From Lachnospiraceae bacterium (GTDB taxonomy: Bacteria > Bacillota > Clostridia > Lachnospirales > Lachnospiraceae): DNA of 64,000 bases. The DNA is taken from positions 1,002 to 65,001 of the forward strand of contig JAHZHB010000119.1 in NCBI GenBank assembly GCA_019420465.1, written 5' to 3'. A program made the translations under genes and the position numbers. Positions 9,663-23,978 of this stretch are shown piece after piece. The notes under the pieces are model-generated. The model searched no databases and was not told the origin of the DNA. It saw nothing but the letters and a program-made list of their open reading frames with translations. Each line of letters starts with the position of its first letter. Position 1 is the stretch's first letter.

Positions 9663-10508
9663 TTATCCTTTGACAGCGCCCGCTGTCACGCCAGCCACCA
9701 TATATTTTTCCAGGAATATAAATACCAGCGCTATAGGGATGATGGAAATAGCAGCTGCAGCCATTATTTCCCCCCAGATAATGGTGTATTCTCCCTTTAA
9801 GGAGGAAATACCTACGGTCATTGTCCATTTCTCCGGTTTCGTGATAAATGTCCTTGCAAACAGGAACTCGCTCCAGCCAAGAATTGCCGAATACGTTGCC
9901 GTAGCAGCAATACCCGGTGTAACTAACGGAACAACAACCTTACGGACCGCCTGTATCCGGCTGCATCCGTCAATTCTTGCGGATTCCTCCAGCGTAATCG
10001 GAATACTGTCCAGATAGCCTTTCATCATCCATGTGGCAAAAGGAATAATGAAAGTAATATTGCTGATGATCAAAGATGCAAAGTTATTGATCATCTTCAT
10101 ATTGGTAAACATCATATACAACGGTACGATCAGCAGTGTTTCTGGAAGCATACGCACCACCAGTAAAAAGAAGCCCAGAAAATTGGTGGAGCGGTATTTA
10201 AATCTTGACATACTGTACGCTGCCATCGTGGATACAATAATTGCAATCACTGTGCTGAATGCCGTTACAAAAATCGAATTTCCAAACCATTGCAGTATGG
10301 GATGTGATTCTACGATTTTTTTGAAATTATCCAGTGTAAGCTGTGACAGCTTTGGCAATACACGGACATTGTCAAGCAGCGCACTTCTCTGTGTCAGCGA
10401 TGTCACCAGCATCCAGTATAAGGGAAATGCAAGAATCACCACTGAGAGAATGATAAGCATATACATACCTGCACGCCGTACTCGTTTCGACTGAAAAGCT
10501 TTCATCAC
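9663..10508 (-). CDS. carbohydrate ABC transporter permease (MalG-like)
   Basis: 281 aa, six hydrophobic segments, EAA-type loop (EESARIDGCSRIQAVRKVVVPL). Confidence 0.9.
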   Translation of the reverse strand: MMKAFQSKRVRRAGMYMLIILSVVILAFPLYWMLVTSLTQRSALLDNVRVLPKLSQLTLDNFKKIVESHPILQWFGNSIFVTAFSTVIAIIVSTMAAYSMSRFKYRSTNFLGFFLLVVRMLPETLLIVPLYMMFTNMKMINNFASLIISNITFIIPFATWMMKGYLDSIPITLEESARIDGCSRIQAVRKVVVPLVTPGIAATATYSAILGWSEFLFARTFITKPEKWTMTVGISSLKGEYTIIWGEIMAAAAISIIPIALVFIFLEKYMVAGVTAGAVKG

Positions 10509-10521
10509 TTATCACTCCCTT

Positions 10522-11436
10522 TCAATAAAACTGTTTTTTCAGTGACGGCATTGCCAGAATCACAAACAGGGAACAAACCAGTAGGCTCACAATGCCGATG
10601 CTGGAAGCATAGCCCATATTATAATATTTAAACGCCTGATTATACAGTAACAACGGCAATGTTTCTGTAGCCTGATTCGGTCCTCCACCTGTAATGGAAT
10701 ACACCAGATCATAATTTCTGAAAATCCATAAGCCATTCAGAAGTAATGACGTCACAATAATGGACTGCAGTGCCGGAAGCGTGATATTTCTAAATTTCTG
10801 CCATGCATTTGCACCGTCAATAGATGCCGCCTCATAGTAATCTCCCGAAATCCCCTTTAATCCAGCCAGTAAAGTCAGCGTGAAAAACGGATAACTTTTC
10901 CATATGGTTGCTGTAATAACCGTAGCAACTGCTGTTTTTTCTCCCGACAGCCATTTTACATTCTGACTGATCAGATGCAGCGATTTTAAAATCGTATTCA
11001 GGATGCCGTAGTTACCATCAAACAGCCAGGTAAACAACAGACCTACTACTACACCCGGAATCGGCCATGCCAGCAGGATCAGCGTACGCACCAGTTTCTG
11101 AAAGCGAAATCTTTTGTTCAGCAAAAGCGCCAGACCCAGACCAATCAGGAAAGAGATCGTTAAGGCAATCGCAGTAAACAGTACCGAACGCCACAGGGCA
11201 CTCCAGAACGCCGCATTCGAAAACAGTTTTCCGTAGTTATCCACAGTCAATGCACTTACATTATCTGTTTTGCTGCCAATAAACTTTATGTTCTGAAAAC
11301 TCAGTTTAATTGTTGTGAACAGTGGATAAATAATCAATGTAAGAGAAAATACTGCTGCCGGTAATGCAAACGAAACAGCCATTCTGTGATTCTTTTTTTC
11401 ACTGATACTTTTTTTGTTTCTGGTCATTTTTGCCAT
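10522..11436 (-). CDS. carbohydrate ABC transporter permease (MalF-like)
   Basis: Multi-pass protein with the EAA loop YEAASIDGANAWQKFRNITLP. ATG 11436 has an AGGTG RBS; the track start 11445 is a GTG. Confidence 0.9.
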   Translation of the reverse strand: MAKMTRNKKSISEKKNHRMAVSFALPAAVFSLTLIIYPLFTTIKLSFQNIKFIGSKTDNVSALTVDNYGKLFSNAAFWSALWRSVLFTAIALTISFLIGLGLALLLNKRFRFQKLVRTLILLAWPIPGVVVGLLFTWLFDGNYGILNTILKSLHLISQNVKWLSGEKTAVATVITATIWKSYPFFTLTLLAGLKGISGDYYEAASIDGANAWQKFRNITLPALQSIIVTSLLLNGLWIFRNYDLVYSITGGGPNQATETLPLLLYNQAFKYYNMGYASSIGIVSLLVCSLFVILAMPSLKKQFY

Positions 11437-11449
11437 TTTACACACCTGC

Positions 11450-12778
11450 TTATTTCAGTTCTGTAGAAATCTTATCCTGCATTCCCTTCAATGTCTCTTC
11501 AACATCTGCATACGGCTCTGTTACCATGGTCATAACACCATCGATGATATACTGTGTAAACTCTCCATAAACCTTTTCATAACCGGACGGAAGGATTTCC
11601 TGTGCTTTTTCTGCATCCTCAACAAACTGCCCCATAAACGGGTTTTCTTCCAGAATCTTATCATCGATAGCCGTGCTGCTCGGAGACGGAGATCCCACCT
11701 TTTCCATATACAGCTTCTGGAAATCGTCTTCCGTTACCATCTGGATAAATTCCCATACAAGGTCTTTCTCTTCGTCGCTGATCGAAGCCGGGATATGCAG
11801 ACTGTTACTCATGGAACCCGGTGTAGTCTCAAACGGTACAGAGGCAACAAGAAGATTCGGCTTGATGTCATCAGCTGCATTTTCAATCAGGGATGCCACC
11901 CACGGCCCATCAAAAATCATAGCCATTTTTCCCTCAACGAAATACTGCCGTTTCTGCTCTACAGAAAGACCTACCGGTGTATAGTTATTCTCAAACAACG
12001 ACTGATACAGCTTCAGTGCATCCACGGTTTCCTGCGATGTCATAGGTGCCAGATCGCCATTGTCCGACCATTTTCCACCCATACCCACAACAAATGTTGT
12101 CGCTTCATTGTAGAAATTCGTATCAGTTACCTGGCATGCACCAAATCCATAAACATCCGGATCGCCATCGCCATCTTTGTCCACTGTCAGCTTTTCTGCC
12201 GCCTGCATAAAAGAGTCCATATCCGTTGGTACTGCCATACCAGCATCGTCAAACATCTGCTTGTTGTAGTACATCGAATAACCATTTCCAAGCAACAGAA
12301 CACCATAGTAATCATCCCCCACTTTGAGGCCATCCTCCAGACTGCTCCATCTGTCCAGAATATCTGTCTTTTCCAGCCTGTCATTCAGAGAATCAAACCA
12401 TCCCATATCCGAAAACTGTGCAGCATATCTGGACGGAATATGTGTGATCTGCGGTGCATTCTCAGCCGCATATAAGGTTGTCAATGTATCTACATAACTG
12501 TCAAAAGGTACCTGATACAGATTGATTCTGACATTTTCATGTCTGTTTTCAAATTCAGCCACAGCTTCCTCCCAGAACTCCTGAAATCCCGGTTCTGTAG
12601 CCTGCCAGCTTGGAAACTCCAGTACGATCTCATCTCCAGTACTACTTGTTTTTGTTTCTTCAGCAACCGGTTCCGATCCTGCTGCCGACCCTGTCTCTGA
12701 GGATGCTGTCGATCCACATCCCACCAGACCTGCTACCATCGCTATTGCCAAAAATGCACTGACCATTCTTTTTCTCAT
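11450..12778 (-). CDS. ABC transporter extracellular sugar-binding lipoprotein
   Basis: Lipoprotein signal with lipobox LVGCGS. Family-1 solute-binding-protein size (442 aa), adjacent to two permeases. Confidence 0.85.
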   Translation of the reverse strand: MRKRMVSAFLAIAMVAGLVGCGSTASSETGSAAGSEPVAEETKTSSTGDEIVLEFPSWQATEPGFQEFWEEAVAEFENRHENVRINLYQVPFDSYVDTLTTLYAAENAPQITHIPSRYAAQFSDMGWFDSLNDRLEKTDILDRWSSLEDGLKVGDDYYGVLLLGNGYSMYYNKQMFDDAGMAVPTDMDSFMQAAEKLTVDKDGDGDPDVYGFGACQVTDTNFYNEATTFVVGMGGKWSDNGDLAPMTSQETVDALKLYQSLFENNYTPVGLSVEQKRQYFVEGKMAMIFDGPWVASLIENAADDIKPNLLVASVPFETTPGSMSNSLHIPASISDEEKDLVWEFIQMVTEDDFQKLYMEKVGSPSPSSTAIDDKILEENPFMGQFVEDAEKAQEILPSGYEKVYGEFTQYIIDGVMTMVTEPYADVEETLKGMQDKISTELK

Positions 12779-12798
12779 CTTTTTTCTCCCTTTTATCT

Positions 12799-14136
12799 TT
12801 ATACATTCGCTCCGTTTTCTTTAAGTTTTTTTCTTAACACCGGAACATCTACCGTCCGAGGCCGTATATGCTTTTCTGCTGCCATTGCTGCGGCCATACC
12901 TGCGGCTTCACCGATTGCCATGCAGGATGGCATAATTCTTGTTGAGGCCAGAGCCTTTGCCGTAGTTGAAATACATCTTCCCGCCACTAACAGATTCTCT
13001 GTCTCTTTTGGTATCAGGCAACGATAGGGAATATCATAGCAGCCATCCTCACTTTTAATAAAAGAAACACCCCATCCGTTCCCTTTGGGATCGTGAATAT
13101 CTATGCAGTATCCGTTTTTCGCAATACAGTCCTCAAATTTTCTTCCCTGCAGGATATCTGTACTGTTCAAAACGTATTCGCCCTCAATTCTTCTTGTTTC
13201 TCTTATGCCAATACCATTCGGAATACTGGTGATATGTGCCTTCTCCATGCCCGGAACATTTGCCGTCAGAAAGCGGACAACCTTTTTCAACTGTCTTCTG
13301 CCCTCTATTTCTGCTTCCGAAAGCTCATAGGCATCTGCACCGTTTTTTCCACTGACCCGGATTGTATTTACATAGGTCAGTTCATTTTGCCGCATTGTAC
13401 CGGCCCAGATATTATGATCCTTATGAGGGAAAATTCCATCCCGTAAAATAATATCATTCCATTCTGTCAGTTTCCCACTGATATGCAGATTGTATTTGTG
13501 ATCTCCGCCAATGGGACACTCGATGATCGGATTTTCCGAAAAATGGCCCGTTGCCTTTTCCACATCAACATCACCCAGCTTAAACAAAAGGCTCATCGCC
13601 TGACAAAGCCCGTCCTCTTCCCGGCCAAGCTTATACTCTGCACCTGCAAAATTGGCCAGATCCCCGTCACCGGTTGCATCTATAAAACAGTCCGCTGTAA
13701 ATTTTGTCAGACCATTTTTATTGGCGACAAGAATCTTTTTTAACACATTCTCTTCTACTTCTGCACCGCATACAAAAGAATGGTACAATATATCACAGCC
13801 ACTTTCCAGAAGCATCTCTTCTGCTACAATTTTTACCCATTCCGGATCTATCATGGTCACAGAATTCAAATGACCACCACTGGTCCTTATATGTCCAAGT
13901 GCAGCTTTTTCTTTATACAGCCGTTCCATCAGCTCCTGGGCCTGCCCCTGTATGATCTGGACACCATTTCTGGTGAAAAAATCAATGAATGGCAGACCAG
14001 AAGCAGCGGTTCCGCCCACATATGCATTTTTCTCAATCAGCAAAACTCTTGCATCGGTTCTTGATGCGCTGAGTGCCGCAGAAATTCCGGCTGTACCGCC
14101 ACCGGCAACAATCACATCATATGTTTCCTGATACAT
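12799..14136 (-). CDS. FAD-dependent oxidoreductase (PF12831-like)
   Basis: N-terminal dinucleotide fold DVIVAGGGTAGISAAL and an IDATGDGD motif. GGAAGGAGG RBS precedes ATG 14136; the track ORF extends to 14271. Confidence 0.8.
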   Translation of the reverse strand: MYQETYDVIVAGGGTAGISAALSASRTDARVLLIEKNAYVGGTAASGLPFIDFFTRNGVQIIQGQAQELMERLYKEKAALGHIRTSGGHLNSVTMIDPEWVKIVAEEMLLESGCDILYHSFVCGAEVEENVLKKILVANKNGLTKFTADCFIDATGDGDLANFAGAEYKLGREEDGLCQAMSLLFKLGDVDVEKATGHFSENPIIECPIGGDHKYNLHISGKLTEWNDIILRDGIFPHKDHNIWAGTMRQNELTYVNTIRVSGKNGADAYELSEAEIEGRRQLKKVVRFLTANVPGMEKAHITSIPNGIGIRETRRIEGEYVLNSTDILQGRKFEDCIAKNGYCIDIHDPKGNGWGVSFIKSEDGCYDIPYRCLIPKETENLLVAGRCISTTAKALASTRIMPSCMAIGEAAGMAAAMAAEKHIRPRTVDVPVLRKKLKENGANV

Positions 14137-14333
14137 ATTCTGTCCGACCTCCTTCCTGTTTCTCTTCAGCGTTCGAACACCTTGTGACTGCATCTTATAT
14201 AATTTCCATTCTTTTTTAAACGTGGTAATCTTTCTATTTTGTTTGTTTTCTTTCGAATTTCTCCAAAACACTTTCTTTCTAAATAGAATCGTCTATAATA
14301 TTTTTAAGAACATTCTGAAAAGGAGATCTTATT

Positions 14334-16043
14334 TTGCGACAGCTTCCCTTTGAAAAAATTCTGTACAAAAACTACATGTATCTTATCCTGACAGCGGCTA
14401 TTCTGATCAGTGTTTTTACGGCTGCCGTAGATGTTTCCACAACCCTGAATAATGAAAAGAAAAATATGCAGGATTCCCTAAAACAGGCACAAATCAACAT
14501 CAATACCCATTCCCAGATGATCGAAGATTATCTCACTCTGACACACAGCAATTCCCAGCTGCAGAAAAATCTTCGAAAGCTATACGCCAGACCATCTGCC
14601 TCTCTGCTTACCGCTATAAATGAAAAGCTGTTTTCAGTCGATCTGTTTAAAAAATCTCTGGATTCCATGCAGATTTTTGCTTATGAGGAAGCCTCTTTTC
14701 TTCCAGCTTTTTCAGACACTTCGCAGTATGGAAACGCCATATTTTCTGCCGAGAGTGTATCTGATGCTGACTGGTTTCAGCAGACACTGGACAGCACAGG
14801 TAAAACCTACTGGTTTACAGACGATGATAATTTCCGAAAACCCACCCTGTGTGCTGCCCGTGTTTTATACGACACCAGCAATCCGGAACATATACTGGGC
14901 GTTTTAAAAGCCAATGTTTCTGTAGAAAAAATGATCCGACATCTGAAAACCCTTTCTTTTGGTAAAAAAGGATATACCTTTATTTCTACGGCAACTGTTT
15001 CTCTTTACGTTGATGCAGATGTTTCCACAACAGATCTGCCTGCTGTCTCTGGGGAGCCGGAACACTCCTCCCTCTCACACCTTGTTATGACATATCCCGT
15101 AATAACAGACGGCTGGCATGTAACAGGTGTTATTGACAACCGCGCACTATATCGCAGTACCTTCCAGAATCTGCTGTGGATCTTACTTATATTTATCCTT
15201 GTTTTGATAGCAGCCGCTCTTTTATCGCGGGAAAACAGCCGGAGAATCTCTGCACCGGTAAACCAGCTTTGCGAACATATGCTAAAGCTGGAAACCTGTC
15301 AAAAGATTCCTGCTGCAAACTGTACCGAAATCCGCCAGCTATATGACACCTACAACAAAATGCTTGAGAAAAATGAAGCTCTGATAAAGTCCAGAGAGGA
15401 TGCCCTTTTAAAATTCAAACAGGCAGAAATGGCAGCACTACAGTCCCAGATGAATCCACATTTTATCTATAATACGCTGGAATCCATCAACGCGCTGATT
15501 TCTATCGGCGATACCGAACATGCCTCTTTAATGACTACCGGTCTTGGCAATTTTTTGCGCAGCAGTCTGAATAACGGCAACAACTATATTTCTTTGCAAA
15601 AAGAACTGGAACAGGTAATTTCCTACATACAGATTCAGAAGTTTCGTTATGCGAACCAGATTGAATTACGGCTTAACGTACCTGCTGTTATTCCGGATTA
15701 CCGGATCATCAAACTGATTTTGCAGCCACTAGTGGAAAATTGCATCTTGCATGGTTTTAAAGATCTGGATGAAACAGGAATTATCACCATCGGCATTTCA
15801 GAAACAGACACCGATCTGATTCTCTCTGTCGCTGATAACGGTTTTGGAAGTGATATTGAAATGCTGAATTATCTTGTCCGGCAGAAAACACTGTACAGAG
15901 AAGATAATGTGAATTTTTACTGTATACAGAATGTATTTCACCGTCTGTATAACTGTTACGGAGAAAACAGCAGTCTGCTTTATACAGAAAACGCGGACGG
16001 CGGTGTTACTGCCACCATCCGTATTGCCAAAAAGGTTCTGTAG
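14334..16043 (+). CDS. sensor histidine kinase, YesM-like
   Basis: Two TM segments flank a sensor domain. H-box region QSQMNPHFIYNTLESI plus a C-terminal HATPase. TTG start with AAAGGAG RBS. Confidence 0.85.
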   Translation: MRQLPFEKILYKNYMYLILTAAILISVFTAAVDVSTTLNNEKKNMQDSLKQAQININTHSQMIEDYLTLTHSNSQLQKNLRKLYARPSASLLTAINEKLFSVDLFKKSLDSMQIFAYEEASFLPAFSDTSQYGNAIFSAESVSDADWFQQTLDSTGKTYWFTDDDNFRKPTLCAARVLYDTSNPEHILGVLKANVSVEKMIRHLKTLSFGKKGYTFISTATVSLYVDADVSTTDLPAVSGEPEHSSLSHLVMTYPVITDGWHVTGVIDNRALYRSTFQNLLWILLIFILVLIAAALLSRENSRRISAPVNQLCEHMLKLETCQKIPAANCTEIRQLYDTYNKMLEKNEALIKSREDALLKFKQAEMAALQSQMNPHFIYNTLESINALISIGDTEHASLMTTGLGNFLRSSLNNGNNYISLQKELEQVISYIQIQKFRYANQIELRLNVPAVIPDYRIIKLILQPLVENCILHGFKDLDETGIITIGISETDTDLILSVADNGFGSDIEMLNYLVRQKTLYREDNVNFYCIQNVFHRLYNCYGENSSLLYTENADGGVTATIRIAKKVL

Positions 16044-16073
16044 TTTTATCCATACACAGGAAAGGATGATCTT

Positions 16074-17684
16074 ATGTTACATATTGTTTTAGTGGATGAT
16101 GAACAGCTGATCATTCATCATCTCATACAGATAATTTCCGGCTTTGATATTCCACATAAAATTGTCGGTACAGCAACCAATAATGAACAGGCTTTGACAA
16201 TCATCCGGGAGACCCGTCCAAATCTTGTCATTACAGATATTCGCATGGGTTCATCCAACGGTCTGGATCTTTGTGAAACCCTGAGCACAACTATGCCGCA
16301 GACAAAGCTTATCCTTCTGTCCGGTTATGATGATTTTCATTATGCACAAAAGGCTTTTCGTTATAATGTTTTTCATTATCTTTTAAAGCCCATCAATGCC
16401 AAAGAGCTTTACGAGCAGCTGGCGCAGGTTTCTGCTATACTGCAAGATGAAGCCGCCACAGAAGCAAAAGATTTTCGTCTGAAAGCGCAGATCCATGATT
16501 GTCTGCCCATGATGCAGGAATGGTTTTTCAAAATCATCCGGGATAATCAGACGGATCTTACTGCGATTGACTCCGTTTTTCAGCTGTTTGACATTGATAT
16601 TTTAAATCCGTTGTACCAAACTGTATTTGTCTCGTTATCTCAGGAAAAAAACATGCAGGAAATAGAAAAGGACTTTATGAATGTTTCCAAGCTGGCTCAG
16701 ACGATCCGGCTTTTTATAGATACTTCCATAAAATCCATCTATTTTTATGATGCAACCTCCATTACACTGATTCTTTCAGCTAGCTATGACCGTCCGGAAA
16801 TCCTGCATCAGCAAAGCTATGAACTGGCTGACCGTATCCGGCAATATCTGGATTTCAGTTATGAAAATCCATTCTCCATAGGGATGTCTACAACTGTGCA
16901 GCAGATTGGCGCACTTCGCCAGTCCGTAAAGGATGCTTTTTCCGCCAGCAAGTACTCCTTCTATATCGGTTTTAATGAAATTATATGTATTACCGATGTC
17001 GAACTGCGCTTAAACAATCCTATGGTTCCAAACTTCAAATATATACAGGAAGATCTTTTAAAGCACTTAAAACTGTGCGATCTGCAAAGTGCACTGCAAT
17101 ACCTGAATATTTATCACCTCAATGTGCTCCAGCTACATGACAGCCAGGCACTTTCCAGAAACAAATTTCTGGAACTGTACTACTATTTATCAAACGCGCT
17201 GAATGAAGAATTTCAGTCTGAACTGCCGTTTCATCCGGATATCGCAGGAAAAATAGAAAACAGTACAAATCTTGATGACCTGAAGATGATTCTGGTGCAA
17301 TATATTCAGGATGTAATTTTCTCTATCGAACAGCTGCGCACCAGTAAAAGCAGAAAGCTGATCGATAAAGCCAAACAATATATTCAGGATAACTATGCGC
17401 ATGAGATTTCTCTGGATTCCATCGCCTGTGAGATTGGTCTGTCTGCCTGCTATCTGAGTACCTTGTTCAAAAATATTGAAACTGTTTCGTTAAAAGACTA
17501 TATCACCACGATTCGTATAAATGCATCCAAAAAATACCTCAAGGATATTGATCTGAAAATATACGAGGTCGCCGCAAACGTAGGATATACGGACTCCCGC
17601 TATTTCAGTCAGTTATTCCGCAAAAAAACGGGATATACTCCTGTACAGTACCGAGAATTTATACAAAATTCTTCCAAAAAATAG
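16074..17684 (+). CDS. response regulator with AraC-type HTH output domain, YesN-like
   Basis: N-terminal receiver domain (DDE...D...K pattern) and C-terminal AraC HTH (GYTDSRYFSQLFRKKTGYTP). Confidence 0.85.
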   Translation: MLHIVLVDDEQLIIHHLIQIISGFDIPHKIVGTATNNEQALTIIRETRPNLVITDIRMGSSNGLDLCETLSTTMPQTKLILLSGYDDFHYAQKAFRYNVFHYLLKPINAKELYEQLAQVSAILQDEAATEAKDFRLKAQIHDCLPMMQEWFFKIIRDNQTDLTAIDSVFQLFDIDILNPLYQTVFVSLSQEKNMQEIEKDFMNVSKLAQTIRLFIDTSIKSIYFYDATSITLILSASYDRPEILHQQSYELADRIRQYLDFSYENPFSIGMSTTVQQIGALRQSVKDAFSASKYSFYIGFNEIICITDVELRLNNPMVPNFKYIQEDLLKHLKLCDLQSALQYLNIYHLNVLQLHDSQALSRNKFLELYYYLSNALNEEFQSELPFHPDIAGKIENSTNLDDLKMILVQYIQDVIFSIEQLRTSKSRKLIDKAKQYIQDNYAHEISLDSIACEIGLSACYLSTLFKNIETVSLKDYITTIRINASKKYLKDIDLKIYEVAANVGYTDSRYFSQLFRKKTGYTPVQYREFIQNSSKK

Positions 17685-17967
17685 AAAATATGTTGCCATC
17701 CCGGGAAGAAATCCAAAATTTCTGCCCGGGGTGCAGCATATTTGCAAAAAAAATACAGCCTCCATATCGGAAACTGTTCAGTGTGCGATGTGTAAAAGGA
17801 GGACGGGCTACCCCGGTTCAAGATCATGTAGAGGAAGTATCATCATTTTTGTTGCGGAGGAAAAACGATGATCATTGATATCGATCCGGAGTATCCACCC
17901 AGCCGTTTAATCTCTTATTCCGTATTCGAGGCTATTGGCCAAGTGAATATCACATACAGGATATTCC

Positions 17968-17999
17968 ATAAAAATAATGCCTGCTCGAAAGAAGCAGAC
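17968..17999 (-). terminator. intrinsic terminator ending the cobalamin-riboswitch transcript
   Basis: On the minus strand, a 7-bp stem GUCUGCU/AGCAGGC with a 7-nt loop is followed by AUUAUUUUUA. Confidence 0.55.
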
Positions 18000-18039
18000 A
18001 TCTAAGACGATCCATATGGATCGAATAGCTGTTCAACTT

Positions 18040-18245
18040 TCTTCGGAAGTCTCAACCTCACTACACAAGCAGGTTTCCTGACTTACAGATCAACGCTAGG
18101 CTCTCCTTCTCATATGCTGAGGACATACAATGGATATTTGAGCTTCACTCCCTGCTCACAGTGACCGGATCGCTCAGGACTTACACCTGATTCCCTCTTT
18201 CAACTGGTACGAGTACCAGAAGCACTTGCATAGGCAATATGGAAT
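18040..18245 (-). ncRNA. cobalamin (B12) riboswitch aptamer with no downstream CDS
   Basis: Minus strand reads AGAGGGAAUCAGGUGUAAGUCCUGAGCGAUCCGGUCACUGUGA (core around 18195..18184). The B12 box AGUCAGGAAACCUGC lies at 18083..18069. Confidence 0.8.
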
Positions 18246-18256
18246 AATACGATAGT

Positions 18257-18285
18257 ATAATAGCATCCTCTGGCAGATCTGTCAA
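18257..18285 (-). promoter_or_regulatory. near-consensus sigma-A promoter driving the riboswitch
   Basis: Minus strand reads TTGACA (18285..18280), a 17-nt spacer, then TATTAT (18262..18257). The -35 box sits inside a 9-bp-stem hairpin (18270..18299) that may terminate the upstream operon. Confidence 0.6.
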
Positions 18286-18325
18286 CCCAAATCTGCCAGA
18301 GAATACATATTTCTCCTCCGTTTTT

Positions 18326-18811
18326 TTACCTGAGTTTCAAATCCAGATGGCTCTCCTCAAGGACACCACCATACCGCTCCGGTAATGCCGCCTGCAGTTC
18401 TTTTTTGCAAGTGGACACATTGACCTGCTGCCATGTTTTCGTGTGGATTTCCCATGAGGATGCGATATCCGCTTTGCTGTCCCGGCTACGGACACGCTGC
18501 AGCTGAGCGGAAAACAGGGGACCTGCAATATGACATTTATACACAGTTCCTTCACTTTGATACAGCTTCTGTCCACAGTGCAGCAGTACTTTTACCGGAT
18601 GCGTAAACCAGATCGCATCGACCAGTGCGGCTCCAAGCTTCGAATATTCCTTTGGCAATCCGTACAGAAGCCTTTTCTGATCCGGACTATACATCTCTTC
18701 AAGGTAAAAGCAGTCACCGGATGCAAAAGCCAGATAAAAGCGACACTCCTTTTCCTGCAGCAGCTTCTGTACAGTGTCCGGCAGCATTTCCGGCTTTAGT
18801 TTTTCCTGCAT
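18326..18811 (-). CDS. hypothetical protein (161 aa)
   Basis: The ORF overlaps the upstream gene's stop by 16 nt. No family recognised. Confidence 0.5.
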   Translation of the reverse strand: MQEKLKPEMLPDTVQKLLQEKECRFYLAFASGDCFYLEEMYSPDQKRLLYGLPKEYSKLGAALVDAIWFTHPVKVLLHCGQKLYQSEGTVYKCHIAGPLFSAQLQRVRSRDSKADIASSWEIHTKTWQQVNVSTCKKELQAALPERYGGVLEESHLDLKLR

Positions 18812-20052
18812 GGCAGATCCATCCTTTCCAGGTCGCTGTCGGGATGATTGCCACAGAGCTTATAGTTATCATCCACGGCCACAAGACCATAACTTTTTCT
18901 TATCTCATAAAATTCTTTTGTCAGACGCACATAGTAGGACAACGGTGGCATCGGCTGCATTCCAAGCTTTGCATGTTTATGTGGCCGCCAGATCGTACTC
19001 AGGCAGACCACTCCGTGTTTTGCAAAAAAGTCACATCCCTCCAGATTCGAGCGCAACGCATCGTCCACACTGGTAAATCCATACGGTCTCGCCAGCTCTG
19101 CACCGGCAACCACCTGTGTATACACATTCCCCGGTCCAAAGACATCCACGGCATCGAGAGTTCTCTTTATCCACGTATCGTACCCAATCCATCTTTCTTT
19201 GCCCGGACAAAGCTTTTTAAACAGCGTCTTGTCCATCACTTCGATATTCGGAGAATAGCTTGTCAGCCCCGTCTCCTGATACAGCCGCTGTACATCCTTT
19301 TTTTCGTAGGCCGGTGCCATCAGCTGACTGTGGAATCTGCCGTCAAACAGTGTACCGATGGAATGCAGAATACGGACATACCGCGCAATCTCTTCCTCAA
19401 ACGGATATCTGCCACGATAATCCGAGCCACCGGAAATATAGATCTGGGAATAACGGCCCGGCTCTTTTAAAGCCTCCCGCACCGTCTCAAAAATATCCTG
19501 CTCGTCCACCTCTGCCGTCTTTGTCTCCGAGAAAAAAGCACAGTATCTGCACTGCTCTCCGGCTTTCCAGAACAGACATTTCTGAAAAGCCGTAAGGATC
19601 AGCTTCTGCGCCCTCGCCAGTGCGACCGCCTCCATCGGCGTTTTCTTCGACGTCACCTGTCCGTAAAAGGACGGTCGGGGGACAAAATCGATCTCATCCA
19701 CCATCTGATCATCTTCCAGCAGCAGAAAGCACCCTGTTTCCGGATCATAATCGGCAATATAGGGATTCTCATACGGTTCCCCGTAATTGATATGGACAAA
19801 GGTTGCATCCCGCAGAAGGATGGCTCCCGGATATACTTTTTTTACTTCTTTTCCACCGGCCAGTCCAAAAGGCTCCAGCTTGCCAAAGCAGTAATCCGGT
19901 GCCTGCACCCGGTCCATTGCCCGTTCTGTCAGGGCAACTCCATGCCAGATCATGCTCAGTTTCAGCAAAACAAAGGGAGATATCGTGGGATATTCCCGCT
20001 GCAGCTGCTCCCATTCCCTGACTTTTTTGTATTTGTTATCCTGTATATTCAT
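18796..20052 (-). CDS. radical-SAM-like protein with atypical CX8CX2C motif (putative)
   Basis: Contains CLFWKAGEQCRYC followed by a glycine-rich YISGGSD segment, and has TIM-barrel-like length. AGGAGA RBS precedes ATG 20052; the track start is 20088. Confidence 0.5.
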   Translation of the reverse strand: MNIQDNKYKKVREWEQLQREYPTISPFVLLKLSMIWHGVALTERAMDRVQAPDYCFGKLEPFGLAGGKEVKKVYPGAILLRDATFVHINYGEPYENPYIADYDPETGCFLLLEDDQMVDEIDFVPRPSFYGQVTSKKTPMEAVALARAQKLILTAFQKCLFWKAGEQCRYCAFFSETKTAEVDEQDIFETVREALKEPGRYSQIYISGGSDYRGRYPFEEEIARYVRILHSIGTLFDGRFHSQLMAPAYEKKDVQRLYQETGLTSYSPNIEVMDKTLFKKLCPGKERWIGYDTWIKRTLDAVDVFGPGNVYTQVVAGAELARPYGFTSVDDALRSNLEGCDFFAKHGVVCLSTIWRPHKHAKLGMQPMPPLSYYVRLTKEFYEIRKSYGLVAVDDNYKLCGNHPDSDLERMDLPCRKN

Positions 20053-20140
20053 AAATGTATGTTCTCCTGTTGTATCTTCCAACGGCATTTTCCAAATACA
20101 AATCTAAATATTTCACTACGTTTTTTGTATGTGCCCCTGC

Positions 20141-20857
20141 TTACAGCCACACAAGACCGCAGATAATCCCTGTATTCAGTCCGATCAGGAACACAAAATC
20201 TCTGATGCGCACCTTTGTCTCAAAGGCCACCTTACGCGGGGCATCATTCTGAAACCCCCTCGACTCCATCGCCATGGCCAGACTCTGCGACCGCTCCATG
20301 GCCTGCACAAGCATCGGGATGATCCGTTTCGGCGAAGCAAATCCGGCTTTTACGCCGCGTACCTTCAGAGACGCGCCCACGATACCATACTCTTCTTTGA
20401 CCACCGGGAAAAAGTGGTACGCCGCCAGTATACCATAGGCAAATTTTGGTGGCAGCTTAAACTGCTGCATCAGACTCATGACCAGCTCAAAGGCATCCGT
20501 GGTAAACGCATACAGCATACCAAGTCCCCCGTAAGCCAGAATACGGCTTGCCAGCTGCATGGCCGTCTGCATATTGCTGGCATACAGTGTTCTCTGGCCC
20601 AATGCGCTGACCTCGACACCTGCCGTTGTTCCGTGATCACCAAAAAACAGACCCGTTGTAAACATGCCAAGGGCCGCAATACCAAAGGGCACCATTGCCA
20701 GAAGAAGTCCCTTACGATTGATGCCCGGTGTCAGAAATGTAACCAGAAGACAGGCCACTGCCACTACAAGGTTGACACGGATATGAAAAGTTGTGGATAA
20801 GATCAAAGAAGCCACGATAACGCTTAACATTTTATATGCCGGATTCAAACTCTTCAT
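20141..20857 (-). CDS. ykoC: ECF transporter T component (YkoC-like)
   Basis: Multi-pass membrane protein. AAAGGAG RBS precedes ATG 20857, a 26-nt overlap with the ATPase gene; the track start 20971 is not credible. Confidence 0.8.
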   Translation of the reverse strand: MKSLNPAYKMLSVIVASLILSTTFHIRVNLVVAVACLLVTFLTPGINRKGLLLAMVPFGIAALGMFTTGLFFGDHGTTAGVEVSALGQRTLYASNMQTAMQLASRILAYGGLGMLYAFTTDAFELVMSLMQQFKLPPKFAYGILAAYHFFPVVKEEYGIVGASLKVRGVKAGFASPKRIIPMLVQAMERSQSLAMAMESRGFQNDAPRKVAFETKVRIRDFVFLIGLNTGIICGLVWL

Positions 20858-22325
20858 TATTTTCCGCTCCTTTTCTGTATACACGCATTTCCTCGTCCGT
20901 AAGTGCCCGGATCTGCCGGTTTTCCACCAGAAAGATCTGGTTGCTGATCGCCTGGGCCAGCCCGAGGTCATGGGTTGCCAGGATCATCGTCAGACCCTCT
21001 TTGATCCTTTTAGCCAGCAGCGATAAAATAAACTTCGTCGACTTTTCATCCTGGGCATACGTCGGCTCATCCAGCAGCATGATATCCGCCTTGCTCAAAA
21101 GCATCGACAACAGCGCCAGTCTTCTCTGTTGCCCCTGGCTGATCGCATACGGCGAATAGGCTTTGTATTCCCACAGGCCGAAGTTTTTCAGGGCTTCTTC
21201 TGTTTCTTTCTTCATGCTTTCCGGATCTGCCTGTTTTCCCTCCCGCATGGCGAGGGTTTCCATGATTTCCTCCTCTATCGTCAGCTTTAAAAACTGAAAT
21301 CTGGGATTCTGAAAGACCAGACCGATCTTTCCACGGCTCTGCAGATCGCCTTTCGTTTTCAATATTCCTGCCATACCGTACAAAAGTGTTGTTTTGCCAC
21401 TGCCGCACCGGCCCACCAGAGCCGTCACGCTGCCCTTTTGGATGGCAAATGACAGATGCTCCATAAAGCAATGCTTCCGGTCATGGTAAAGGGCTACATC
21501 CTGCGCCTGCAAAATGACCTCTGCTGCCGGTAAGACCTCCGGCTTTTTTATATCATCCAGATAAGAGCCTTCTTTTGCATCAGCATAAAAAAGCCCCAGG
21601 TGCTCAAATTTTTCCCGGCTGTTGAAAAGCTCTGCGGGATATATGCTCGTTTCATCCAGATTACCCTCTGTCCGCATCAATACAACACGGCTTAAGAAAG
21701 GCTTCCACCAGTCCAACTTATGATCCACGATCAGTAAAGTCATACCCTCTGCATTCACTTCCCTCAGCATTTTGGCCAGACTTTTGCAAGACGCCGGGTC
21801 AAGATTGGCAAAGGGCTCATCTAAAATCAGCATTTCTGCACCCGTGGCCAGTGCCGTGCCCAGTGCCAGCTTCTGTTTCATACCACCAGAGAGCTTCTGG
21901 ATCTGCGTATGCATTTCCTGCTCCAGACTGATCTTTTGCAGGATTTCCTGCGTGCGTGCCACCAGATCTCCTTCATAATTGATATTTTCCAGTGCAAACA
22001 GGACTTCCTGATCGACCCGGCTCATACAGAACTGGTCATCCGGATTCTGGAACAGGATGGACAGTTTCTTGGAACGTGCCGCCGCCCCAAAAGAAGAGAG
22101 AGATTCTCCCTCTAAAAGAATCTCTCCCGACATTTCTCCTGAATATTGCGGATACAGTCCACTTAAACAATAAGCCAGTGTACTTTTTCCGCAGCCGGAT
22201 GGACCCATAAGCAGCACGACCTCTCCACGTTTTACAGAAAGCGACAGCTGTTGAAAGACCTTTTTTTCTTCCATGCCATAGGAAAAACTCAGGTCCTTAC
22301 AGGTTAATATCTCATCCATTTTCAT
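20832..22325 (-). CDS. ykoD: ECF transporter duplicated ATPase (YkoD-like)
   Basis: Two ABC cassettes: Walker A GPSGCGKST and GRCGSGKTT, signatures LSGGMKQ and ISQGQQ. Confidence 0.9.
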   Translation of the reverse strand: MKMDEILTCKDLSFSYGMEEKKVFQQLSLSVKRGEVVLLMGPSGCGKSTLAYCLSGLYPQYSGEMSGEILLEGESLSSFGAAARSKKLSILFQNPDDQFCMSRVDQEVLFALENINYEGDLVARTQEILQKISLEQEMHTQIQKLSGGMKQKLALGTALATGAEMLILDEPFANLDPASCKSLAKMLREVNAEGMTLLIVDHKLDWWKPFLSRVVLMRTEGNLDETSIYPAELFNSREKFEHLGLFYADAKEGSYLDDIKKPEVLPAAEVILQAQDVALYHDRKHCFMEHLSFAIQKGSVTALVGRCGSGKTTLLYGMAGILKTKGDLQSRGKIGLVFQNPRFQFLKLTIEEEIMETLAMREGKQADPESMKKETEEALKNFGLWEYKAYSPYAISQGQQRRLALLSMLLSKADIMLLDEPTYAQDEKSTKFILSLLAKRIKEGLTMILATHDLGLAQAISNQIFLVENRQIRALTDEEMRVYRKGAENNEEFESGI

Positions 22326-22909
22326 TATTTTCTACCTAATTCATATCCCTTTAACAGGCCGGTCTTAGCCAGTCCGTCACCGATCATCTTGCAGATGAAA
22401 CCGGAGAAGATTAAAGAACTTACCAGACGGATCACAAAGAACAGGATCAGCACCGGAACCGACAGCTTGCCGTATCCGGAACGGACAAAGCTCCAGGCAA
22501 AGCTGGTGATGCAGGCGCCGGCAGATGCGATATACATCACAGCGCCGTCAAACTTGCGGTATTTGTTGGCGGCAAAGACGATCTCCGCACCGGCACCCTG
22601 AATGATACCGGCCACGATCACCATCGGTCCGAACCAGTTGCCCAGCAGAACTTCGATCACAGCGGCGATAACTTCAGCTACAACAGCCACACCCGGCTTC
22701 TGCAGAATATAGCCGGCCAGTGTTGCCGCCATAAACCATACACCAAACAGGATCTCATTGCCCAGCTGGCTAAGGCCTGTGGCTGCCAGTGCTGCAGAGA
22801 TAAAGGATGCGCCGTAAACAGCACCCAGATATACCACACCAAATACGATACAGATCATTGCGATCAGGATAATTTCATTTAACTGCCATGTATTTTTCTT
22901 TTCTTTCAT
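22325..22909 (-). CDS. ykoE: ECF transporter S component (YkoE-like, HMP/thiamine precursor)
   Basis: 194-aa six-helix membrane protein positioned between the ykoF-like and ykoD-like genes. Confidence 0.75.
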   Translation of the reverse strand: MKEKKNTWQLNEIILIAMICIVFGVVYLGAVYGASFISAALAATGLSQLGNEILFGVWFMAATLAGYILQKPGVAVVAEVIAAVIEVLLGNWFGPMVIVAGIIQGAGAEIVFAANKYRKFDGAVMYIASAGACITSFAWSFVRSGYGKLSVPVLILFFVIRLVSSLIFSGFICKMIGDGLAKTGLLKGYELGRK

Positions 22910-22913
22910 CTTC

Positions 22914-23549
22914 TTACTCCTCCACTGTCGGACTGTTACAGTTCATTGTAAAATGTAAAATATAATGGGGCACGCTCTTTTCCATCAGTGTGCAGACATC
23001 CGTCAGATAATCCATCACCTCATGGACATCTCCCTCAATACGGGTCGCATAATGGATCGTTTTCGGCTGAAGGCCTCTGTCCTCGGCCATATACCATACC
23101 TTTGCGATATCGTCGATATAGTCACCTGTACCCATCGGATACAGAGCAAGCTTACAGTGTACCGGGAAATGGATATCCTGCACCTTCGCTTTGTTCGGTG
23201 CTTCTCCCTCTTTTCCCAGCACGCTGTCACCGTCGCTGTCGCCCGGGCAGCCCTTGGAGAACTGTCCTTCCAGAGCCATATGTACACCCTCGCGGTAAGC
23301 GTTGATAAACAGTGCTTTCACTGCATCTGCGACATACGCAAGCTTTCCACGGTATACCGTAGATAAAGCATCTGACTCGCTCCATACATAGGATGTATCG
23401 GTTTTCTCCAAAGATCCTACGATCAGATCGATAAACTGATCGCACATCGGATACAGGGAAAAACGGCATCCGGAGATTGGCAGAGATGTGCCTCTTCCGG
23501 CCCATGGCAGATCCGGTCTGTTGCAGCCGCTGCAGCAATTGTTTTCCAT
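22914..23549 (-). CDS. ykoF: HMP/thiamine-binding protein YkoF
   Basis: Colinear by eye with B. subtilis YkoF (RFSLYPM...CPGD...LALYPM tandem repeat). GGAGG RBS lies 8 nt before ATG 23549. Confidence 0.85.
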   Translation of the reverse strand: MENNCCSGCNRPDLPWAGRGTSLPISGCRFSLYPMCDQFIDLIVGSLEKTDTSYVWSESDALSTVYRGKLAYVADAVKALFINAYREGVHMALEGQFSKGCPGDSDGDSVLGKEGEAPNKAKVQDIHFPVHCKLALYPMGTGDYIDDIAKVWYMAEDRGLQPKTIHYATRIEGDVHEVMDYLTDVCTLMEKSVPHYILHFTMNCNSPTVEE

Positions 23550-23563
23550 AGTCATTTCCTCCT

Positions 23564-23720
23564 CTTTTACATGCTAAGGCAACCATGAGAAACACACTTC
23601 GCGAGTTTCTCATGGTTTTCGCGGCAGTCGCCAAGGCCTTGTGCAAGCACAGGCTTTGGCTCGTTGCTCGCGTAAGTAAAAGAAACCTCCACCGGAGCTT
23701 TCTTTTATCTGCTAAGGCAA
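23564..23720. repeat. 19-nt imperfect direct repeats bracketing a ~119-bp highly structured insert in the ykoF leader
   Basis: CTTTTACATGCTAAGGCAA (23564..23582) versus CTTTTATCTGCTAAGGCAA (23702..23720). The interior has a perfect 13-bp stem (23581..23617) and a second 9-bp stem (23630..23660). Confidence 0.6.
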
Positions 23721-23870
23721 AAAAAATACTTTCCTTGGTAAAAGAAAGTATCTCGGTCATATCCTCTGTATATTGATTTAATGGTTGAAATACTTCCCTA
23801 CGCCGGTATTACCCAGATCAGGTACAAAGGGTCGAATCTTTATTCTCTCAGCCTTGCGGCTCCCCCAGTA
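23719..23870 (-). promoter_or_regulatory. TPP (THI-box) riboswitch with terminator
   Basis: Minus strand reads CUGGGGGAGCC...GCUGAGAGA...ACCCUUUGUACCUGAUCUGGGUAAUACCGGCGUAGGGAAG. The terminator is an 8-bp stem ATACTTTC/GAAAGTAT plus T8 (23751..23719). Confidence 0.9.
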
Positions 23871-23978
23871 TTATAATATTTTTTTGCACGGGCTTAAGTA
23901 TATAACGATATGTCGGCTTTGTCAATGAAAGCATATTTTATGCTATAATACAGGAAATGATTCGAAGGGAGGACAGCT

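Follow-up and report, generated by a model that had tools for sequence, protein, structure and literature searches.

A predicted variant radical SAM enzyme and a split-barrel partner recurrently follow TPP-riboswitch-controlled ykoFEDC genes

In Bacillus subtilis, the ykoFEDC operon is controlled by a thiamine pyrophosphate (TPP) riboswitch (the THI-box) and ends at ykoC. We analyzed a 64,000-nucleotide (nt) stretch of DNA from a Lachnospiraceae bacterium (assembly GCA_019420465.1, contig JAHZHB010000119.1, positions 1,002 to 65,001; hereafter the window), in which the same riboswitch is followed by ykoF, ykoE, ykoD, and ykoC in the B. subtilis order, with clear homology to the B. subtilis proteins YkoE (PDB 5EDL) and YkoF (1S7H), and then by two further genes that encode proteins of 418 and 161 amino acids (aa). 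What are these two genes doing in a thiamine-responsive operon? Our analyses predict that the first encodes a variant radical S-adenosylmethionine (SAM) enzyme (rSAM) and that the second encodes its obligate partner, a diverged PNPOx-like split-barrel protein. The pair recurs behind ykoFEDC in two phyla. From this context, we infer that the pair is probably a salvage enzyme that would use an imported pyrimidine-bearing compound, encoded in a thiamine-repressed operon.

A preliminary description of this DNA had placed a TPP riboswitch at about 23.8 kb ahead of ykoF-ykoE-ykoD-ykoC, an 88-nt gap without a terminator after ykoC, and then a 418-aa gene overlapped by a 161-aa gene. All of this was borne out. 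The riboswitch model RF00059 matched at 23778-23876, all four Yko families were matched, no minus-strand terminator or promoter was found in the gap, and the open reading frames (ORFs) at 18796-20052 and 18326-18811 overlap by 16 nt. The locus thus has the make-up of a TPP-riboswitch ykoFEDC operon, with a THI element followed in one direction by YkoF, YkoE, a double-ATPase YkoD, and YkoC. Its features are listed from 5' to 3' in window positions. All lie on the minus strand. HMP stands for the hydroxymethylpyrimidine precursor of thiamine, ECF for energy-coupling factor, and ABC for ATP-binding cassette.

23897..23925, minus strand: sigma-70-type promoter TTGACA-17-TATACT, 11 of 12 consensus matches, directly 5' of the TPP aptamer
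23778..23876, minus strand: TPP riboswitch aptamer RF00059, 74.8 bits against a gathering score of 54.3, E 6.6e-13
23719..23751, minus strand: likely expression-platform terminator, an AT-rich 8-bp hairpin (ATACTTTC/GAAAGTAT) followed by T8, read directly from the sequence
22914..23555, minus strand: ykoF, thiamine/HMP-binding protein family with two YKOF repeats, PF07615 E 1.6e-50, B. subtilis YkoF 1S7H and 1S99 E 1e-42
22325..22909, minus strand: ykoE, ECF S component, PF09819, PDB 5EDL E 1e-37
20832..22325, minus strand: ykoD, fused double ABC ATPase, two ABC_tran domains, ECF ATPase models at 246-258 bits
20141..20857, minus strand: ykoC, ECF T component of the CbiQ family, PF02361 E 4e-21
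20053..20140, minus strand: 88-nt spacer between ykoC and the rSAM gene, with an AGGAGA ribosome-binding site ahead of the ATG at 20052
18796..20052, minus strand: predicted variant rSAM enzyme, 418 aa (NF045502, PF04055, conservation, and predicted model)
18326..18811, minus strand: gene of the 161-aa partner, overlapping the rSAM gene by 16 nt
18268..18301, minus strand: 11-bp perfect hairpin 3' of the operon, overlapping the -35 box of the next promoter

What kind of protein is the 418-aa product? It matched the NCBIfam model NF045502 ('variant_rSAM') with 188.3 bits against a cutoff of 125, over model positions 6-354 of 357, and passed the Pfam gathering score of PF04055 marginally (29.6 against 29.5 bits). 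A precomputed PF04055 match is missing in many of its homologues. An AlphaFold model built on an alignment of 62 sequences had a mean predicted local distance difference test score (pLDDT) of 92.4 and a predicted template modeling score (pTM) of 0.91. The top 20 PDB matches of this model in Foldseek were all rSAM enzymes with a probability of 1.0, the best being biotin synthase (BioB), lipoyl synthase (LipA), PylB, HydG, and NosL (E 2e-7 to 1e-4). The preliminary description had suspected a radical SAM enzyme and proposed profile searches and structure prediction as the check. Both agree with it, and they predict a true radical SAM enzyme of variant type that would cleave SAM.

The cysteines refine this assignment. 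A CX8CX2C motif had been noted in the protein. It corresponds to C159-X8-C168-X2-C171 and has no exception among the 120 listed homologues or the outgroup paralogues, with a spacing that differs from the canonical CX3CX2C. The protein also carries an SGGSD block, with an invariant G209. The additional Cys pairs of the preliminary description proved to be conserved cysteines that stand singly (C282, C340, and C400). Two of them, C282 (in CPGK) and C400 (in CGNH, CGNHPDSD), are conserved across the superfamily including the outgroup paralogues, and conservation of C340 is confined to the yko-linked clade and its closest sisters. A three-cysteine auxiliary cluster formed by C282, C340, and C400 was considered and dropped when the wider alignment showed C340 to be clade-specific. 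Clusters of rSAM proteins with CX8CX2C (RadicalSAM.org megaclusters 4-6-x) are listed as uncharacterised variants (PMC9477430).

The superfamily is small. A HMMER pass over 1.84 billion representative proteins returned 790 clusters at E <= 1e-3 and 80 at E <= 1e-30. Homologues are named just 'radical SAM protein' or 'hypothetical protein' in public records, and a homologue search with a core NF045502 paralogue returned only the labels 'radical SAM', 'NifB', and 'FO synthase'. Core NF045502 members have the CX8CX2C motif, the CPGK cysteine, and a C-terminal cysteine in common with the 418-aa protein, but they are only 25-27% identical to it, score 410-460 bits with the model against its 188, and, in the cases seen, lack a PNPOx-like partner. 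To judge from its score with TIGR04043 (50.8 bits against a threshold of 303.7), the 418-aa protein is only a distant relative of the MSMEG_0568 family. BioB, LipA, and PylB have the (beta/alpha) barrel core of rSAM enzymes in common with it (Foldseek E 2e-7 to 9e-6, target-normalised template modeling scores 0.52-0.61). However, their identity is 10-17%, their cysteine spacing is different, they lack the extra N-terminal domain of ~140 residues that precedes the barrel in the 418-aa protein, and their auxiliary-cluster ligand sets are not evident in it.

Could the enzyme act in de novo synthesis instead, as an anaerobic substitute for ThiC or in another biosynthetic step, and stand in the operon for co-regulation only? 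ThiC, with its C-terminal CX2CX4C motif, is itself a radical SAM-type enzyme, thi genes are commonly under TPP riboswitches, and the nearest structural neighbours BioB, LipA, and HydG are cofactor-biosynthesis rSAMs. However, the 418-aa protein matched no ThiC family in Pfam or NCBIfam and carries a different cysteine motif in the middle of the protein, as the preliminary description had maintained. No other thi biosynthesis genes were found within the yko-rSAM operons, and in every clade the pair is tied to an importer (Yko or an SsuA-type ABC system), and once to YkoF itself. We therefore consider a de novo role very unlikely.

Does the 161-aa protein belong with the rSAM? The window protein alone had no Pfam or NCBIfam match, and PF01243 did not match it even at E <= 1. 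Its family was recognised through the homologues of its neighbour. Twenty-five of the 120 listed rSAM homologues are long (570-720 aa), and each of the 25 C-terminal tails shows homology to the 161-aa protein, which is also homologous to the products of the small genes 3' of the rSAM gene in loci L007, L011, and L013. The phmmer E values against these fused tails and small neighbour genes ranged from 1e-26 to 1e-7. Because a small partner gene directly follows the rSAM gene in most of 93 loci and the two are fused in these 25 homologues, sequence comparison identifies the 161-aa protein as an obligate partner of the rSAM.

The partner family appears to be a diverged branch of the PNPOx-like split barrels. 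In an alignment of 40 partner sequences, a core of A-I-W-F, G-P, and A-S-x-W-E was conserved, along with an H-L-D motif at the C-terminus, and 18 of the 40 members matched PF01243 (PNPOx_N; best E 5.9e-6). A family profile searched against the PDB found 2HTD, a flavin-binding protein of COG3576 (E 4.8e-4), and, as a weak match, HupZ. The predicted model of a natural fusion from Parolsenella massiliensis (pLDDT 91.6, pTM 0.92, C-terminal domain 83-98) matched the PhdC flavoprotein (9NK4, 9NK0, 9SRJ) in Foldseek with a probability of 0.98-0.99 over ~158 columns, besides its rSAM matches. The fold was thus assessed on a fused homologue 33% identical to the window 161-aa protein. A ferredoxin/ACT-like fold, considered on the basis of secondary structure, was ruled out by these profile and fold searches. 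The family has the N-terminal signature and fold in common with 2HTD, HupZ, and PhdC; it differs from them in that the window member is too diverged for PF01243, carries the C-terminal H-L-D motif, and occurs as a subunit or domain of an rSAM. Because the N-terminal G-x-P-H of distant members is gone from the yko clade, flavin binding may have been lost there, and cofactor binding in that clade is uncertain.

We profiled the gene neighbourhoods of homologues for a connection between the pair and thiamine genes. A genome-collection scan with the single rSAM protein returned six loci, and breadth came from look-ups of exact proteins and from a metagenome alignment scan that added 80 loci; the ORFs of metagenome loci were labelled by phmmer against the window proteins and the proteins of two distant loci. 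A Clostridia homologue with 66% identity lies in a locus with ykoF-E-D-C, rSAM, and partner, and a Parolsenella locus (Coriobacteriia) has ykoF-E-D-C followed by the fused rSAM-partner. Among relatives with at least ~49% identity, the yko genes stand immediately 5' of the pair in at least 15 distinct loci with gaps of ~0-120 nt, and the carriers are Lachnospiraceae and other Clostridia (Bacillota) and Coriobacteriia. With Rfam, a TPP riboswitch was found ahead of ykoF in each of the 12 scanned loci (the window, L002, L007, L010, L014, L016, L018, L019, L022, L023, L028, and L032). The genes flanking the six-gene unit vary from locus to locus, which marks it as a discrete unit. The exceptions among these relatives are L017, the one close relative that lacks yko genes; L036, where another ECF A-A-T set lies 5' of the rSAM gene on a short contig; and contigs that end too near the rSAM gene.

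This linkage bears directly on whether an unrelated two-gene cassette merely came to lie past ykoC by chance. In favour of a cassette, the closely related L017 pair lies beside a recombinase and without yko genes. However, the gene order recurs in the 15 or more loci across two phyla with variable outer neighbours and short gaps, a TPP riboswitch precedes it wherever this was scanned, and a fusion with YkoF exists. We give chance adjacency almost no credence, as the data already contradict it. In L017 (3000-16000), the pair lies between a large serine recombinase plus QueA and two TIR-TPR proteins, which suggests that it was relocated on a mobile or defence-island segment.

A fusion was found in L025, where one 368-aa ORF (1315-2421) consists of a partner domain (residues 41-135, E 7e-20) followed by YkoF (residues 176-367, E 4e-54), in the gene order rSAM, partner-YkoF, ykoE, ykoD, ykoC. 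This fusion ties the rSAM enzyme to YkoF itself. It could also mark YkoF as a target, since rSAM enzymes are known to modify proteins; the pair would then serve the transporter, modifying YkoF or YkoE post-translationally or making or repairing a cofactor, and would not act on an imported compound. However, the same pair occurs in SsuA-type loci that have no YkoF, and YkoF cannot for that reason be its conserved client. Moreover, the B. subtilis ykoFEDC system works without the pair (PMC5037267). We regard such a service function as highly improbable.

Two further observations concern the carriers. The L002 contig, 93% identical to the window over the operon, is labelled Ruminococcus bromii ('cleanbin'), and L001, 98% identical, is labelled Lachnospiraceae; the discrepancy is probably a binning or labelling error. 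In L010 (10012-11682, Parolsenella massiliensis), a gene for a TPP-dependent enzyme of the acetolactate synthase/pyruvate oxidase type lies ~200 nt 3' of the fused rSAM gene on the same strand.

Are the six genes of the window transcribed together? The minus-strand scan of the 88-nt spacer found neither a terminator-like nor a good promoter-like site, and its RNA fold was unremarkable (z = -1.0). The absence of separating signals that had been reported for this junction therefore holds, and the gaps of relatives are similarly short. Two contigs span the junction (X1 19851-20179 and X2 20003-20232), from runs labelled metatranscriptomic or RNA-Seq whose RNA status is a guess, with DNA carry-over possible. 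Spacing and missing signals suggest, with weak support from these contigs, that ykoF-ykoE-ykoD-ykoC-rSAM-partner are co-transcribed.

Some details of the operon depended on how they were called. The consensus terminator scan overlooked the likely riboswitch terminator at 23719..23751 because it demands at least three G-C pairs. The ykoC start at 20857 was picked to fit homologue lengths (237-240 aa), the reading frame being open from 20971. An upstream in-frame ATG at 20088 would lengthen the rSAM to 430 aa, and the AGGAGA site favours 20052. In the leader, the stretch from the riboswitch terminator to the ykoF ribosome-binding site contains a perfect 13-bp hairpin (AACCATGAGAAAC/GTTTCTCATGGTT, 23588-23626, minus strand) that lacks a U-tract and may serve in processing or stabilisation. 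The hairpin at 18268..18301 had been taken for the first convincing one after the pair. This did not hold, as it has no U-tract and contains the -35 box of a cobalamin-riboswitch promoter (18285..18257). Its stem is partly maintained in L001, with one compensatory pair, and poorly kept in L002. It may be a weak 3' end or a stabiliser rather than a canonical terminator; the first canonical minus-strand terminators past the operon are at 18002..17976 and 17777..17755.

Where did the pair come from? Relatives with 35-49% identity derive from peat, sediment, and groundwater metagenomes and from metagenome-assembled genomes of Geobacteraceae and Chlorobiaceae. Yko genes were never seen beside them. 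None of 10 SsuA-type loci scanned had a TPP riboswitch, and this clade is therefore not thiamine-regulated. The recurrent operon here consists of metK, rSAM, partner, an SsuA-like binding protein, a permease, and an ATPase, often with a B12-binding rSAM, and frequently in two or three paralogous copies. Among 66 SsuA-type loci, metK was near the rSAM gene in 20, often directly 5' and in the same direction (as in L041, L047, L063, L066, L068, L070, L071, L078, L082, L085, L088, and L093), a B12-binding rSAM was present in 21 and was often last in the operon, and a NifH-like gene and a sulfatase were found in nine and three, respectively. L013 carries an alkylsulfatase and an rSAM/SPASM protein of the anaerobic sulfatase maturase type. 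In three loci, metH or metA lies within a few kb and is preceded by a SAM riboswitch, and in one locus a Pfs-like nucleosidase follows the importer. The distant binding proteins best match TIGR01728 (SsuA_fam), with 134 and 167 bits against a cutoff of 163.5.

Core NF045502 paralogues with CX8CX2C also occur in tandem beside SsuA-type clusters (L011 549-5048, L013 13425-17251, and L057 10853-14875). In L011, genes for a BcrAD/BadFG-type activator ATPase and for two HGD-D subunits come after one of the core paralogues, and NifH/NifDK-like genes lie 3' of the importer. The Leptospira relatives L004 and L005 (32% identity) have neither a partner nor a nearby importer and lie beside a PanE/ApbA-like reductase.

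In a neighbor-joining tree rooted on the core NF045502 paralogues, all yko-linked proteins formed one clade inside the SsuA-linked radiation, sister to a porin-plus-SsuA group. We conclude from these sequence relationships that the thiamine-regulon enzyme appears to have been recruited from a family handling compounds of sulfonate-type importers in sulfur- and methionine-linked loci. Because the yko clade is nested in this way, salvage of an imported pyrimidine compound, induced by thiamine starvation, is the most likely function. The preliminary description had suggested that the pair may modify or salvage a thiamine or pyrimidine precursor, and fold, linkage, and regulatory signals, the three points on which it said the idea could fail, all support this, with salvage itself read from the context. 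It had overlooked the PNPOx-like obligate partner, the sulfonate-type importers of the wider family, and the cobalamin riboswitch downstream. It was aware of no rSAM enzyme in yko operons, in agreement with our literature search, in which no paper joined ykoF or ykoEDC with a radical SAM enzyme.

What would the imported compound be? B. subtilis YkoE binds thiamine with a dissociation constant of ~4.5 nM, through contacts of W49, E77, and Q95 with the pyrimidine and of Y46 and D131 with the thiazole (PMC5037267). The window YkoE retains W49, E77, and Q95 and has F in place of Y46 and S in place of D131. Among the 14 YkoE sequences compared, all of them rSAM-linked, E77 and Q95 are present in all, W49 in 12, F46 in 12, and S131 in 10. 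Because the pyrimidine contacts are kept and the thiazole contacts are replaced, these sequences hint at a pocket that still suits the pyrimidine of thiamine and not obviously its thiazole half. The thiazole contacts of YkoE vary in general, and the role of YkoF has been called unclear (PMC5037267).

A pocket altered on the non-pyrimidine side would also suit detoxification, in which the rSAM and its partner destroy or convert toxic thiamine or HMP analogues (bacimethrin-type compounds or oxidised pyrimidines) admitted by YkoEDC and thereby make uptake harmless when vitamin B1 is scarce. The regulation and linkage speak for this as much as for salvage, and antivitamins released in nature are discussed alongside yko genes in one preprint (bioRxiv 10.1101/2025.04.17.649140). 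However, nothing toxin-specific was seen, and the ancestral loci, with importer and metK, are of a nutrient-acquisition type that suits assimilation better. We consider detoxification decidedly unlikely.

Salvage could proceed as follows. At low TPP, the cell would make the YkoEDC ECF importer, the cytoplasmic thiamine/HMP-binding YkoF, and the two-subunit rSAM-partner enzyme. A pyrimidine-bearing breakdown product or analogue of thiamine would enter via YkoEDC and be held by YkoF. The 5'-deoxyadenosyl radical would then attack, anaerobically, a carbon on the C5 position of the pyrimidine or an equivalent site, and a group beyond the reach of TenA-type hydrolases would be released or converted, giving an HMP-type precursor. 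The role of the split-barrel partner would be to donate or take up an electron or to present the ligand. Because the module was recruited from the SsuA-importer/metK family of sulfur- and methionine-linked loci, the chemistry is probably a cleavage or oxidation at a carbon bearing sulfur or a similar leaving group.

A more specific version takes the whole family as an oxygen-independent counterpart of TauD/SsuD, with the yko clade of gut and rumen bacteria specialised on (4-amino-2-methylpyrimidin-5-yl)methanesulfonate, from which the HMP skeleton would be recovered. This compound is the classical sulfite-cleavage product of thiamine. Hydrogen would be abstracted from the sulfonate-bearing carbon, the partner would take the electron, water would add, and the resulting 1-hydroxysulfonate would collapse to an aldehyde and sulfite. 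This version fits both genomic contexts (yko and SsuA-type), but we think it unlikely. A literature search returned nothing relevant on thiamine-sulfite cleavage or the pyrimidine sulfonic acid, or on a TPP riboswitch combined with a radical SAM enzyme and an ECF transporter.

Several points weigh against the salvage interpretation or parts of it. Co-transcription is argued from spacing, from absent signals, and from two short contigs of runs guessed to be RNA. The window 161-aa protein has no Pfam match, and the N-terminal half of the yko-clade partners is without the G-x-P-H of distant members. L017, at 61% identity, has the pair beside a recombinase and without yko genes. Just two extra cysteines, C282 and C400, are conserved across the superfamily, and an auxiliary cluster is uncertain for that reason. 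The sulfur connection is contextual: the SsuA_fam scores are near or below the cutoff, and NitT/TauT-type proteins carry non-sulfur ligands too.

Directly after the 161-aa gene, the window carries a second riboswitch unit.

17755-18285, minus strand: cobalamin-riboswitch unit with its own strong promoter (18285..18257)
18051-18244, minus strand: cobalamin aptamer, 95 bits

The aptamer is followed by the terminator at 18002..17976, a ~200-nt tail with three CCUCC/UCCUC motifs, and the second terminator at 17777..17755. No coding gene or ORF with a ribosome-binding site was found after the riboswitch on the minus strand. The unit is ~99-100% identical in L001 and L002, where its flanking regions differ and an unrelated sequence lies downstream. 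In run X1, a 279-nt contig at 17820-18097 had a depth of 64 against 1-9 over the neighbouring operon. By analogy, the unit is a candidate B12-controlled small RNA with a logic like that of EutX/Rli55. It is absent from more distant rSAM loci and is therefore not part of the rSAM module. A role as antisense regulator of the convergent AraC-type response-regulator gene was rejected, as the second terminator intervenes and the neighbours differ in L001 and L002.

On the plus strand, a 45-aa ORF (MIIDIDPEYPPSRLISYSVFEAIGQVNITYRIFHKNNACSKEADI, 17868-18005) whose ATG is preceded at 7 nt by GGAGG runs antisense to the first terminator and the tail of the riboswitch. Transcripts that read through the riboswitch could serve as antisense RNA to this ORF. 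Further along, window 9663-17684 holds a cluster with no relation to thiamine. Its minus strand encodes an FAD-dependent oxidoreductase (PF12831) and a sugar-type ABC importer composed of a binding protein with two permeases; the genes of a Cache/His_kinase sensor and of an AraC-type response regulator, which resemble YesM/YesN, run divergently from these.

How does the pair compare with known salvage and assimilation systems? Known salvage of degraded thiamine uses ThiXYZ import, the YlmB deformylase, and the TenA hydrolase. The logic is the same, namely an importer of pyrimidine breakdown products and HMP-yielding enzymes under thiamine control. However, those enzymes are hydrolases of unrelated sequence that use no radical chemistry, and none of them is found within the yko-rSAM operons. 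Radical SAM enzymes are required for anaerobic organosulfur use in the form of IsrB with IsrHDK (isethionate assimilation by Rhodobacter capsulatus) and MarB with MarHDK, whose genes lie next to those of Ssu/Tau-type importers and of nitrogenase-like proteins (PMC11423573). The SsuA-type relatives found here have similar neighbourhoods, a likeness of gene context; in contrast, the pair has no nitrogenase-like partner in most loci, and the window pair stands in the thiamine regulon. Compared with B. subtilis ykoFEDC, the operon has two more genes, and the thiazole contacts are replaced in most rSAM-linked YkoE. The components are all of known kinds. What is new is their combination, the obligate pairing of rSAM and split barrel, and the split of the family between the thiamine regulon and metK/SsuA operons.

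By their record names, cultured carriers include Parolsenella massiliensis and Enorma phocaeensis, which makes the salvage hypothesis directly testable. The metK-rSAM-partner-SsuA-importer set, with or without the B12-binding rSAM, represents an uncharacterised system of environmental anaerobes (66 loci here), and oxygen-independent routes for such nutrient assimilation are only now emerging. Competition for thiamine shapes gut and rumen communities, and what YkoF does and which substrates YkoEDC truly accepts are still open questions (PMC5037267). A conserved, riboswitch-controlled radical enzyme with a physical tie to YkoF would offer a handle on both, and the anaerobic salvage reaction it implies would be one that is missing from maps of the vitamin B1 pathway and from auxotrophy predictions for gut anaerobes.

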